DNA from: Verrucomicrobia bacterium UBA3869
Lineage (GTDB): Bacteria; Verrucomicrobiota; Verrucomicrobiia; Opitutales; UBA9783
Length of the DNA: 7,195 bases
Reading direction: 5' to 3'
Assembly (NCBI GenBank): GCA_002392285.1
Contig: DGGR01000030.1
Span: 1 to 7,195, forward strand
Within the stretch, counting starts at the first letter, position 1. Every line of letters starts with the position of its first letter. Below are positions 4,067-6,134 of this stretch, piece after piece. The translations under genes and the position numbers were made by a program. The notes beneath the pieces were generated by a model. The model did not search any database and was not told the DNA's origin. It saw only the letters and a list, made by a program, of their open reading frames with translations.

Positions 4067-5308
4067 TTACCGGAAGTTGGTCTTCGGATCTTGGTAGGGT
4101 TCTTGATAAGAAAGCCCGCCTTTCCGGTAGAGCTTCGCCTTCTCTTCTTTATTCATATTGGTTTCGGTAGTAATTTTCCAACCTGTTTTCGCTTGCGAAG
4201 TATGTTTGGTAGCCACCTTCGTCTTAGCCTTAGTAGATGAGGTTTGCTTTTTGTTGGTACGGTTGAGTTTAACCGAATCTTTTTTATCGGATAGCTTTTG
4301 AACAGGAGGTTGTTCGTTGGGGATTTCCTCATGGTTAACCGGATGATCCACCTTAGGGGCCTCTGGTCCTGGAATGGGTTGAGGGTCGGAATGGATTGAA
4401 GTCGGGGAAGGAGGTTCCGATGGGATCGGATTGGAAGGATGCTCTTGAGGCTGTTCCAATTTCGGTTCGGGTTTAGGTGGTACCGGATTCCCTTGAGAGG
4501 GGATGTTAACGGGATCTTGTTGGCCCGGAGCTTTTTCAGGATTAAGGATGGGGGATACGTTCGGTTCGGCATTATTGGGTGGATTTTCAACTGGGTTTTC
4601 TGGTGCATTTTCTTGTGCAGGAGCGATGGGCTTAGCTTCTGTTTTTTCAGCCCGGCTTAACAGAAGGGATTGGTGGACCTGGATCATCGCACATAGGCTA
4701 TCGACAATCGCTTTGTTAATGGGGTTTTTAAGGGCGAGTTTGGCTTCAAGAAAGCTGCTGGGACCATTTTGAGCTAGAATGTTGATCAGATCCATTAGTT
4801 GCTCCTGCGATTGAACTGTTTTATAGCCAAGTTTTTGGTATAAAGCGGCTGTATTTTTAAAAATCGCATTTTCCAAATCATTGATCAGTGCTTGCCCTTC
4901 TTTATCCGAAAAATCTTGCTTGGAATGGGTAATTTGATGGGCCAAGCTCTTGAGCTCTTGGGTGCTATTATTGAGGGTATGAACCGCGCTGTCCCTGAAT
5001 TCCTTAAATAATAGGTGCTTGATGTTATGGCCGATATTCAGAACGATTTGCTTAATACTTCCGAAGAAGCCGCGTCCGCTTGTGTCATGGGTTAAGGAGA
5101 CCAAGCGGGTTTTGTCCGCCTGATGCATATTCGCTAAGGATTGAGTAGCCAGGGTGGTTGTGTTGTTCAGAAGCGCCTGATTGGATACAGCTACCGAATG
5201 ATTATCGACCTCCGGAGCATTTTGCGGGGCTGACGCAACCTGCGAGGGGTTCAATGAAGGGGAATTAGGGATGATAGACATAGCAAAAACTAACGGTTGC
5301 AGAGGCAT
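4067..5308 (-). CDS. Hypothetical protein ORF-A (413 aa): helical N-terminal region paralogous to ORF-B, then a proline-rich linker, a Lys/Thr/Ser basic tail and a terminal YQEP-YQDP
   Basis: This is the longest ORF in the region. AAGGA lies 3 nt before ATG 5308, and the gene starts 16 nt downstream of the ORF-B stop, which suggests an operon. A protein-level block is shared with ORF-B although the DNA has diverged (Ser TCC vs AGC, Leu TTA vs CTG at aligned positions), which argues that both are real coding genes. I see no signal peptide, no TM segment and no known catalytic motif. An alternative start is Met10 (MSIIPNSPS) at 5281. Confidence 0.75.
   Translation of the reverse strand: MPLQPLVFAMSIIPNSPSLNPSQVASAPQNAPEVDNHSVAVSNQALLNNTTTLATQSLANMHQADKTRLVSLTHDTSGRGFFGSIKQIVLNIGHNIKHLLFKEFRDSAVHTLNNSTQELKSLAHQITHSKQDFSDKEGQALINDLENAIFKNTAALYQKLGYKTVQSQEQLMDLINILAQNGPSSFLEAKLALKNPINKAIVDSLCAMIQVHQSLLLSRAEKTEAKPIAPAQENAPENPVENPPNNAEPNVSPILNPEKAPGQQDPVNIPSQGNPVPPKPEPKLEQPQEHPSNPIPSEPPSPTSIHSDPQPIPGPEAPKVDHPVNHEEIPNEQPPVQKLSDKKDSVKLNRTNKKQTSSTKAKTKVATKHTSQAKTGWKITTETNMNKEEKAKLYRKGGLSYQEPYQDPKTNFR
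4298..4633 (-). other. Low-complexity proline-rich segment of ORF-A (about aa 226-337; rich in P/N/E/Q, with PxxP, PPKPEPK and SEPPSP strings)
   Basis: The translation reads KPIAPAQENAPENPVENPPNNAEPNVSPILNPEKAPGQQDPVNIPSQGNPVPPKPEPKLEQPQEHPSNPIPSEPPSPTSIHSDPQPIPGPEAPKVDHPVNHEEIPNEQPPVQ. This compositional bias also explains the overlapping shadow ORFs in other frames of the track. Confidence 0.85.
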
Positions 5309-5324
5309 TTATCCTTATAAGTAT

Positions 5325-6134
5325 TCAAGATACTTGGCGGGTCCCTTTTTGAGGCTGTAGTATCTCTTTAGCCAAATGGTTCTTTAAATCATTTAAAAAC
5401 ACATCTTTAAAAAACTGAGGATCATCCTTGTGTTCATTTAAGCCATGATATTCGGAGGCCTTTGCGAAGTCATTAGCGGTACTGCTGAAAGCTTCGCACT
5501 TTGTCCTGAAAGATAGCAACCGGTCTAAATTGTGCAGTAATTGCTTAACCTCCTGGTTGATTCGCTCTTTTGTGGCTGCTGTAAAATGCTTTGCTTCCTC
5601 TTGGAGGTTCTTGCAGGCTGTTCGTATATCATTGGCTGCAGAACGAATTTCCTTCCTAATTCCATCGACATCTCTTGTTTGATTCAGTTTAAATAATTCA
5701 TTAAAACGGTTGAAGGTCATGGTGTCATCCGGATTACGGATACATTGGTCATAAATAGAAAGGTATAAGTTCTGGATTGCGTTGGATTGCTCTTGGAGTG
5801 TATTGATCGCTCGATCAGATTGCTCTTGGAGTGTACGGATAGCTTGATCAGGATTACGGGATAGGGATCGGAGTGAATGGATAATATTACGTAATACCTG
5901 TTTGATCTTATCCCAGAATCCTTGATTGCTGGTATTGTGCCCCAGGCTGACCGAATGAGCCTTTTCGAAATTGACATGGTTATTTGTCATGCCTTCGGCG
6001 ACGGATTTTAACGCGGTTTTTAATTGTTCGTTGATGAACGAGGTGCCGTTTTTAACGTTGGGATCTTGGGGATTAGTGAGCTTAGTTTGGGTGGAATTGG
6101 TAGTGGGATTATTCTGAACTCCTGATAGACTCAT
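5325..6134 (-). CDS. Hypothetical protein ORF-B (269 aa), probably all-helical, paralogous to the N-terminal part of ORF-A
   Basis: ATG 6134 to TGA 5325. The N-terminus MSLSGVQNNPTTNSTQTKLTNPQDPNVKNGTS is polar, with no hydrophobic core. The block SVSLGHNTSNQGFWDKIKQVLRNIIHSLRSL aligns to ORF-A LVSLTHDTSGRGFFGSIKQIVLNIGHNIKHLL with 15 of 31 residues identical. A second weaker match is FLNDLKNHLAKE against LINDLENAIFKN. I recognise no known family. Confidence 0.75.
   Translation of the reverse strand: MSLSGVQNNPTTNSTQTKLTNPQDPNVKNGTSFINEQLKTALKSVAEGMTNNHVNFEKAHSVSLGHNTSNQGFWDKIKQVLRNIIHSLRSLSRNPDQAIRTLQEQSDRAINTLQEQSNAIQNLYLSIYDQCIRNPDDTMTFNRFNELFKLNQTRDVDGIRKEIRSAANDIRTACKNLQEEAKHFTAATKERINQEVKQLLHNLDRLLSFRTKCEAFSSTANDFAKASEYHGLNEHKDDPQFFKDVFLNDLKNHLAKEILQPQKGTRQVS
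5785..5835 (-). repeat. In-frame tandem duplication with a 33-bp (11-codon) period inside ORF-B
   Basis: The exact 18-mer GATTGCTCTTGGAGTGTA occurs at 5785-5802 and again at 5818-5835. It encodes AIRTLQEQSDR / AINTLQEQSN, followed by a degenerate third unit AIQNL. Confidence 0.85.

Follow-up and report, generated by a model that had tools for sequence, protein, structure and literature searches.

Which role could be played by two adjacent minus-strand genes that lie between frr and gyrB, resemble no described family and, in one of the two, vary within a single species far more than anything around them? This question arises from a stretch of 7,195 nucleotides (nt) of Verrucomicrobia bacterium UBA3869 (GenBank assembly GCA_002392285.1, contig DGGR01000030.1, positions 1 to 7,195 of the forward strand; hereafter the window), in which an initial annotation made from the letters alone had singled out the pair, here called ORF-A and ORF-B (ORF, open reading frame). 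The window is identical in sequence to contig DPHL01000024 of GCA_003521725.1 ('Opitutae bacterium'), to contigs of a sheep-rumen data set and to sequence in two further assemblies, and its host is a sheep-rumen Opitutae metagenome-assembled genome (MAG) that is not known as an intracellular symbiont. The most pronounced feature of the locus, one that this annotation had missed, concerns ORF-B, whose sequence outside a conserved N-terminal module is represented in a single species, as far as its sequence comparisons indicate, by old and strongly diverged alleles that recombination has turned into mosaics.

Six alleles were compared, namely that of the window and those designated L001, L007, L019, L020 and L021. 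Among these, the proteins of the flanking genes gyrB, frr, pyrH and prmC are 95-99.6% identical, with nonsynonymous divergence (dN) of 0-0.021 and synonymous divergence (dS) of 0.02-0.22. The ORF-A proteins are 87-95% identical (dN 0.02-0.09, dS 0.07-0.22, dN/dS ratio or omega 0.2-0.5), and the ORF-B proteins share 61-75% of their residues, with dN of 0.12-0.25 and dS of 0.23-0.70 in most pairs and an omega of 0.3-0.66, so that dN and dS are both raised about five-fold or more. Across a 16-kb comparison, ORF-B forms the sole divergence trough, with 69-79% nucleotide identity versus 93-100% elsewhere, and the divergence begins at codon 3, right after the conserved intergenic region. The nearest allele also switches along the gene. 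The window allele is 99% identical to L019 at 5257-5402, about 71% identical to it at 5553-5702 and 61% at 6000-6131, a segment in which it is 96% identical to L021; L001, L019 and L021 are in turn mutually 97-99% identical at 5778-5926. The pairwise homoplasy index (PHI) permutation test returned p<=0.001 for ORF-B, 49% of the informative site pairs failed the four-gamete test, and the alleles show a modular shuffling that involves two leader types and several C-terminal types. An assembly artefact is ruled out as the source of the main contrast, since the window allele was found identical in four independent records and the L001 allele in two. In the L021 allele (2383-2422 of that sequence), a stop codon falls 12 codons early, which widens the intercistronic gap from 16 to 55 nt and suggests that the extreme C-terminus is dispensable.

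The combination of raised dS with near-identical segments lying beside very divergent ones points to old alleles shuffled by recombination, and such alleles would in turn imply balancing or diversifying selection, or else import from diverged lineages. The same combination argues against simple relaxed constraint and against uniform hypermutation; it is also unlikely that hypermutation alone produced the high dS, because ORF-A, which has the same orientation in the same operon, shows a normal dS and because segments of 99% identity abut others of about 70%. Among the marks of selection, ORF-B carries polymorphism far above that of its flanks, synonymous sites included, together with mosaic alleles. 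A diversity-generating retroelement or a set of silent cassettes was also considered, and neither a reverse transcriptase nor a template repeat was found in the neighborhood of the locus.

Both ORF-A and ORF-B are genuine genes. Their reading frames are intact in all six alleles and in a sister species (250-480 amino acids, aa) despite 64-76% amino-acid divergence, and the two are paralogs, which BLASTP aligned at 29% identity over 125 aa (E=3e-9) and hhalign, run on the two family alignments, at 96% probability (E=1.3e-9, about 104 columns). The homologous region delimited by hhalign spans residues ~20-127 of ORF-A and ~15-128 of ORF-B. The initial annotation had described a half-identical block with differing codons as the trace of an old tandem duplication under purifying selection; the block is real (VSLTHDTSGRGFFGSIKQIVLNIGHNIKHL versus VSLGHNTSNQGFWDKIKQVLRNIIHSLRSL, 15 of 30 residues identical), the quoted codon differences are visible at aligned positions (TCC/AGC, TTA/CTG, AAG/AAA, CAA/CAG), and the purifying selection is borne out by an omega of 0.05-0.35 in the shared N-modules, but the homology is confined to the N-terminus. 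An old, tandem duplication covering the N-terminal module only is what these alignments support. This module comprises a disordered polar leader, a motif and the first helices. Across the family, the leader of ~55-65 aa (S/T/N/Q/P-rich, beginning MS(I/L)...N.P) precedes the motif [KQ]x[HR]xV[ST]...T.G..[FI]..I.Q...N..H, which is followed by a helical region of 190-600 aa. The motif was aligned in five member types (ORF-A, ORF-B, the proteins P0010 and P0011 described below, and a protein from the related locus L010), and it was found as well in a 662-aa member from locus L011 that was compared separately.

Beyond this module the two proteins differ in build. The AlphaFold2 (AF2) models are helical bundles that follow a low-confidence N-terminal stretch (predicted template modeling score, pTM, 0.62): seven helices in ORF-B, with residues 1-71 at low confidence and a predicted local distance difference test (pLDDT) score of 63, and six to seven in ORF-A, with low confidence to residue 66 and a pLDDT of 65. 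The leaders, rich in S/T/N/P/Q and lacking a hydrophobic core, fall among these low-confidence residues. A 33-bp tandem duplication in ORF-B (DQAIRTLQEQS / DRAINTLQEQS) adds 11 residues in the window allele only, being absent from all relatives. The proline-rich linker of ORF-A is indel-prone, with an omega of about 0.3-1.1 across its analysis windows, and the K/T/S/A-rich tail behind it ends in the motif RKGGL[ST]..EPYQ.P, which is kept in the sister-species ortholog P0010 although the middle of that protein has diverged. The start of ORF-A is ambiguous between M1 and M10, the latter giving MSIIPNS..., like the N-termini of its relatives. P0010 (residues ~270-340) and P0011 (~250-320), both from the sister-species locus L008, also share an extra C-terminal module, ...QQL.I.T.SL..D...D..N.I..., which is unrecognizable in the ORF-A of the window and against which MAFFT weakly places the C-terminus of ORF-B (YHGLNEHKDDPQFF...).

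The orphan status and lineage restriction that the initial annotation had proposed received strong support from the searches. A word-indexed search of 5.8 billion proteins yielded six clusters for ORF-B and three for ORF-A, and HMMER, run exhaustively with a joint profile against 1.84 billion representatives, retrieved no more than four real clusters: the families of ORF-A and ORF-B themselves, and P0010 and P0011, which come from an Opitutales MAG of horse faeces. A fifth match, P0012 (1078 aa), was discarded as the spurious translation of a tandem repeat. A search seeded with all member types added three further clusters only, a relative of 351-423 aa, bringing the family to about a dozen clusters, every one from rumen or hindgut Opitutales. 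No curated Pfam or NCBIfam cut-off was reached by ORF-A, ORF-B, P0010, P0011 or the L010 and L011 members, which produced only coiled-coil noise; a Spore_III_AB match scored 21.9 bits against a cut-off of 32.5, and ORF-A was without any Pfam match. PADLOC gave no defense-system match, its best being ZorA3 in a coiled-coil region (E=0.016, 12 bits). No homologue appeared in PHROGs, INPHARED phages, PLSDB plasmids or IMG/VR, and no relatives appeared in two Joint Genome Institute (JGI) metagenome scans and one IMG/VR scan. In the PDB, a sequence-profile search found nothing significant (best CRASP-2, 4bg0, E 0.054; VAMP8, 0.24; FliS, 0.26), and recurring SNARE/syntaxin/MukF/14-3-3-like matches were dismissed as generic helical ones. 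Foldseek, run with both AF2 models against the PDB and with the ORF-B model against BFVD, returned nothing at E<0.09 and template modeling scores of at most 0.37. By these comparisons the proteins form an undescribed family that can be placed neither in a known one nor in a fold class more specific than 'helical bundle'; the newness applies to the family, not to a demonstrated mechanism.

Related genomes were located by an frr-seeded genome scan, which returned MAGs of the Opitutales and Puniceicoccales that derive from rumen, from horse faeces and from the guts of termites and humans. In the sister species, L008, whose flank proteins are 91-99% identical to those of the window, the frr-gyrB junction holds a pair of paralogs on the minus strand, 484 and 345 aa long; the flanks agree at 92-94% DNA identity, whereas the pair itself could not be aligned by blastn and retains ~36% protein identity in ORF-A and 24% in ORF-B. 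The leader of the upstream gene in L008 (~12650-12750) contains TTAAGCATATGGAA twice, and a short dead-end ORF occupies the place at which ORF-B begins in the window species. Three loci of a second genus differ in content. The junction is empty in L009 (frr 72% identical, gyrB ~81%), holds one 351-aa gene with the family motif in L010 (frr 71%, gyrB ~82%; BLASTP E 7e-6, hhalign E 4.5e-5), and holds a 630-aa gene without significant protein similarity in L011 (frr 72%, gyrB ~82%). L011, a rumen MAG, encodes in addition the 662-aa family member between gyrB and gyrA (15268-17253, minus strand; hhalign 83%, E 9.5e-6), which gives the layout frr> <630 gyrB> <662 gyrA>, whereas gyrA directly follows gyrB in L009 and L010. 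In more distant relatives, frr is not adjacent to gyrB. Every family member is divergent, head-to-head, from a gyrase gene, and both copy number (0, 1 or 2 genes) and size (256-662 aa) vary among related species.

These comparisons answer the suspicion of an insertion raised by the initial annotation, which finds no support: this species and its sister species both carry the family in the frr|gyrB slot, the second genus carries it there in diverged form, and the composition of the pair is normal. The mild AT-richness reported for ORF-B does exist (41.6% GC versus 44.7% for the window) and stems from codon positions 1 and 2, but it does not amount to a compositional anomaly, as the third-position GC content (GC3) is 43.3% in ORF-B, 47% in ORF-A and 29-46% in the neighbors, and the codon-usage index is 0.64, 0.69 and 0.65-0.79, respectively. 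The pair is flanked by neither repeats nor mobility genes, again as first reported. A foreign origin as a horizontally acquired island is ruled out by GC3, codon index, the lack of repeats, and the conservation of synteny and of a promoter element. The two genes form an operon that is peculiar to this lineage and resident in it, not a recent insertion.

The conserved promoter element in question is the 14-mer AATTCGTCCGTTTT, an identical copy of which precedes the 630-aa gene of L011, in a different genus and the same slot, and which occurs nowhere else in 301 kb of loci; related cores precede the other family members. Because the 14-mer is kept in L011, where the coding sequence is unrecognizable, the slot and its promoter are older than the recognizable coding sequence. 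A second intergenic element, CCTTTTAGCAAGATAATGA, probably belongs to the promoter region of gyrB or of ORF-B. Upstream of ORF-B lies also an A6T6 tract (6158-6170), whose length differs among the six alleles (A5-6, T5-6, 11 or 12 nt in total), a variation that could tune promoter spacing or be plain polymorphism.

The gene calls of the initial annotation, which had placed both ORFs on the minus strand 16 nt apart with AAGGA ahead of ORF-A and had set them within the run rpmB-prmC-pyrH-frr ... gyrB, proved accurate (table 1). Co-transcription of ORF-B with ORF-A, which it had also proposed, is probable because the gap is kept at 16-17 nt in five alleles or relatives and neither a terminator nor a promoter was predicted inside it. 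On the other side of the pair, frr and ORF-A converge, their stop codons lying 22 nt apart (4045-4066) without a terminator hairpin; this spacer is longer and ~25% divergent in L001 and L021, which indicates two haplotypes. The GC skew of the plus strand is strongly and evenly positive in nearly all 300-nt windows from ~1350 onward (about +0.1 to +0.4), regardless of gene orientation, so the plus strand is probably the leading one and transcription of ORF-A and ORF-B would then run head-on to replication. Farther away, the mechanically called start of pyrH at 2641 overlaps prmC by ~100 nt, and a start at 2749 (MKRILLKLSGG, 237 aa) is favored by relatives and by sequence conservation. Another orphan gene, of 409 aa and without a Pfam match, lies downstream of a tgt-like gene in L003 (1011-2276) and L001 and is cleanly missing from L019 (~485-525), a 1.27-kb presence/absence polymorphism among members of one species.

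Table 1. Features of the window and of the ORF-A/ORF-B pair (positions in nt of the window; residues in aa of the respective protein).
Feature	Position	Strand	Remarks
serS, N-terminal part	1-1047	minus	
tRNA-Leu, tRNA-Thr, tRNA-Lys	1057-1392	minus	
rpmB	1591-1827		
prmC	1890-2744		
pyrH	2749 (likely start)-3462		
frr	3481-4044		
ORF-A	4067-5308	minus	413 aa; downstream member of the pair; more conserved paralog
ORF-A basic tail, residues 341-413 (73 aa)	4070-4288	minus	19 K+R vs 7 D+E
ORF-A proline-rich acidic linker, residues 223-340 (118 aa)	4289-4642	minus	28% Pro; 17 D+E vs 6 K+R
ORF-A N-terminal helical domain, residues 1-222	4643-5308	minus	omega 0.05-0.28
ORF-A motif KTRLVSLTHDTSGRGFFGSIKQIVLNIGHNIKHL	5012-5113	minus	within the N-terminal helical domain
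Intercistronic spacer, 16 nt	5309-5324	minus	between ORF-B stop and ORF-A start (5308); AAGGA at 5312-5316
ORF-B	5325-6134	minus	269 aa; upstream member of the pair; stop codon 5327-5325
ORF-B variable helical half, residues 136-269	5328-5729	minus	mosaic; dN 0.17-0.40; omega ~1.06 at residues 151-180
ORF-B conserved N-module, residues 33-135	5730-6038	minus	omega 0.11-0.47; long invariant runs; homologous to ORF-A ~20-127
33-bp tandem duplication in ORF-B	5785-5850	minus	copies identical at 28/33 nt (88% in another comparison)
ORF-B signature motif KAHSVSLGHNTSNQGFWDKIKQVLRNIIHSLRSL	5862-5963	minus	V, T, I, Q, N, H, L invariant in five member types
ORF-B polar leader, residues 1-32	6039-6134	minus	S/T/N/Q/P-rich; two allele types with indels; dN 0.37-0.40, dS 0.90-0.95
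Upstream element AATTCGTCCGTTTT, 14 nt	6144-6157	minus	10-23 nt ahead of the ORF-B start codon
Intergenic element CCTTTTAGCAAGATAATGA	6169-6187	minus	between ORF-B and gyrB; common to the sister species
gyrB, first 326 codons	from 6217		divergent to ORF-B

Taken together, these features lead us to prefer, tentatively and well short of conviction, the explanation that the pair encodes non-enzymatic, all-alpha, modular binding proteins at an antagonistic interface. The two homologous N-modules would bind one another or attach to a single conserved partner, which might be an export route other than Sec; ORF-B would use its variable helices as the surface in contact with a fast-changing antagonist, be it a phage, a competitor or a eukaryote that grazes on the bacterium or hosts it; and ORF-A would contribute a spacer, its proline-rich linker, and an anchoring basic tail. 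Genes of the same family that share one slot and carry mosaic alleles usually encode surface or secreted structures. Since the leader in addition resembles non-Sec export signals, an exposed or exported location is favored, a step that is the least supported of the scheme and that we regard as somewhat doubtful.

Several observations weigh against the antagonistic-interface explanation. The gene-wide omega of ORF-B stays at 0.3-0.66 and reaches about 1 (~1.06) in only one 30-codon window, a pattern that, in six alleles lacking the power for site models, does not demonstrate strict positive selection. Recombination was detected in gyrB as well (p=0.004) and is therefore not specific to the pair, and all alleles come from metagenome assemblies, only two of them replicated in independent assemblies. 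Kyte-Doolittle profiles and sequence inspection revealed no transmembrane segment, signal peptide, lipobox or twin-arginine motif in either protein (maxima over 19 residues of 1.29 in ORF-A and 0.09 in ORF-B, with polar N-termini), and the +/-10 kb around the locus contain no gene for a secretion system or a chaperone, which leaves export unsupported. The lack of signal peptides and transmembrane segments had been read correctly from the start, as had that of enzymatic motifs, no catalytic motif or domain being detected in the pair by Pfam or NCBIfam. The pairing of ORF-A with ORF-B is purely something that we infer.

A bolder extension of the antagonistic-interface explanation, which we consider unlikely, is that gut Verrucomicrobia possess in this family a hitherto unrecognized class of variable proteins that reach the surface or the outside of the cell without a signal peptide, whose leader and motif would form a targeting module for an undescribed or unsuspected export route and whose ORF-B alleles would be under frequency-dependent selection from phages or eukaryotic grazers. 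If the proteins turn out to be exported, they would indicate an unrecognized targeting signal, and if they are linked to gyrase or the nucleoid, they would represent topology-coupled factors of a new kind. Little is known of what the uncultured Verrucomicrobia of rumen and hindgut interact with. As a slot that keeps its promoter while the coding sequence diverges past recognition, that has no relative among 15 billion proteins beyond a handful of gut Opitutales and that holds the most polymorphic gene of its neighborhood, the locus offers a concrete handle on what these bacteria fight or bind, and it is also a natural strain-typing marker.

The notion toward which the initial annotation had leaned, that of a secreted effector pair, is improbable in our estimation. 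Here the leader would direct secretion by a type III, a flagellar-type or some other non-Sec system, the targets of the proteins would lie in a eukaryotic host cell (of a rumen ciliate, a fungus or the epithelium), and ligand motifs of eukaryotes would be imitated by the proline-rich region. The polar, predicted disordered N-termini devoid of a hydrophobic core are consistent with this notion, as are the PxxPxK-like motifs in the proline-rich stretch of ORF-A and the hypervariability of the genes. The organism, moreover, belongs to the Planctomycetes-Verrucomicrobia-Chlamydiae (PVC) superphylum, in which chlamydial effectors show similar gross features. The upstream A/T tract, 8-11 nt spacer and TCCG loosely recall sigma-28-type promoters; with its inconsistent spacing (N8-N11) and poor -10 match, this reading of the element is a weak lead only. 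Against an effector role stand the 20-kb contexts, which contain no secretion apparatus, chaperone or flagellar gene, and the immediate surroundings, in which frr and gyrB are the neighbors, no small acidic chaperone gene is adjacent and the operon has no extra ORF. The proteins have no homology to any effector family, and the rumen MAG gives no evidence of an intracellular lifestyle; nothing specific was found in the literature on the lifestyle or the type III secretion system (T3SS) of rumen Opitutales. In one rumen study, moreover, Verrucomicrobia were found enriched in the free-living and not in the protozoa-associated fraction (PMC11222294), which again counts against effectors.

An intracellular phage or mobile-element module, that is, a defense, decoy or immunity pair whose variable helices recognize or evade phage proteins, has in our judgment a similarly small chance of being correct. 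It would suit the cytosolic features of two proteins without signal peptide or transmembrane segment, the varying copy number and gene size, and the high mosaic diversity within a species in a fixed slot between core genes, a pattern typical of defense loci. The slot, however, is held by the same family and not by alternative systems, the proteins have neither a PADLOC or PHROG match nor a nuclease, ATPase or other effector domain, and the family is missing from the phage, plasmid and IMG/VR collections searched.

The position of all members opposite a gyrase gene invites a third possibility, to which we give less credence still: a nucleoid- or gyrase-associated scaffold in which the helices oligomerize, the basic tail of ORF-A binds DNA, expression is coupled through supercoiling-sensitive divergent promoters, and the diversity reflects weak constraint plus recombination. 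L011 fits this proposal, as one of its copies faces gyrB and the second faces gyrA, although the second copy can also be explained if a segment with gyrB was duplicated locally and the additional gyrB then lost. The conserved intergenic elements and the basic tail that follows the acidic linker of ORF-A likewise speak for it, but ORF-B is without such a tail, the empty L009 junction implies that the gene is dispensable, and relaxed constraint alone cannot explain raised dS together with mosaic old alleles. Functionless or decaying lineage-specific ORFs under rapid drift are very improbable, for although homologues are lacking beyond a narrow clade, the sequences are of low complexity, the L021 allele is shortened and the L009 junction is empty, omega is well below 1 in the N-modules, the ORFs have stayed intact in all alleles and the sister species through extensive divergence, and the promoter element is conserved across genera.

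Known systems offer partial parallels to the antagonistic-interface explanation. The mycobacterial PE/PPE and EsxA/EsxB proteins are likewise tandem, co-transcribed, all-helical paralogs with a conserved N-terminal domain and a variable C-terminus, lack a Sec signal, and are lineage-restricted and polymorphic; their paralogs heterodimerize, a pairing that for ORF-A and ORF-B we only infer. The pair matches them in neither sequence nor fold (WXG100_2 reached E=0.073, short of the cut-off), and no WXG or YxxxD/E motif was seen by eye in the ORF-A and ORF-B alignments. Type VII secretion is not known in Verrucomicrobia. Variable paralogous helical bundles that bind host factors also occur in the Borrelia PFam54/CRASP family, the source of the best, non-significant PDB sequence match (4bg0, E=0.054), but CRASPs are lipoproteins with signal peptides and Foldseek does not support a common fold.

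The chlamydial type III effectors (Tarp-like proline-rich proteins and tandem paralog families) come from the same superphylum and resemble the pair in their polar, signal-less N-termini and in being helical, low-complexity, fast-evolving and encoded among housekeeping genes; the host of the window is, as far as known, an extracellular rumen organism, the +/-10 kb of context gave no evidence of a T3SS in the lineage, and no Pfam or NCBIfam match links the pair to any chlamydial family. The streptococcal M and M-like proteins (mrp-emm-enn) are tandem paralogs too, forming alpha-helical rods with mosaic hypervariable alleles within the species and, as in ORF-A, a proline-rich spacer followed by a charged tail. 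In contrast to ORF-A and ORF-B, M proteins possess a signal peptide, LPXTG and a transmembrane anchor, their hypervariable part is N-terminal only, and they belong to Gram-positive hosts, with no homology to the pair. By analogy, the pair may work like PE/PPE-Esx, M-like or chlamydial effector proteins while being a member of none of these systems, because the features tested (profile match, sorting signals, motifs and adjacent chaperone) failed. Should the family indeed be a class of signal-less exported variable proteins, it would be the functional counterpart, in Gram-negative bacteria, of the antigenic variation known from M proteins or PE/PPE proteins, with a connection to the promoter region of gyrase.

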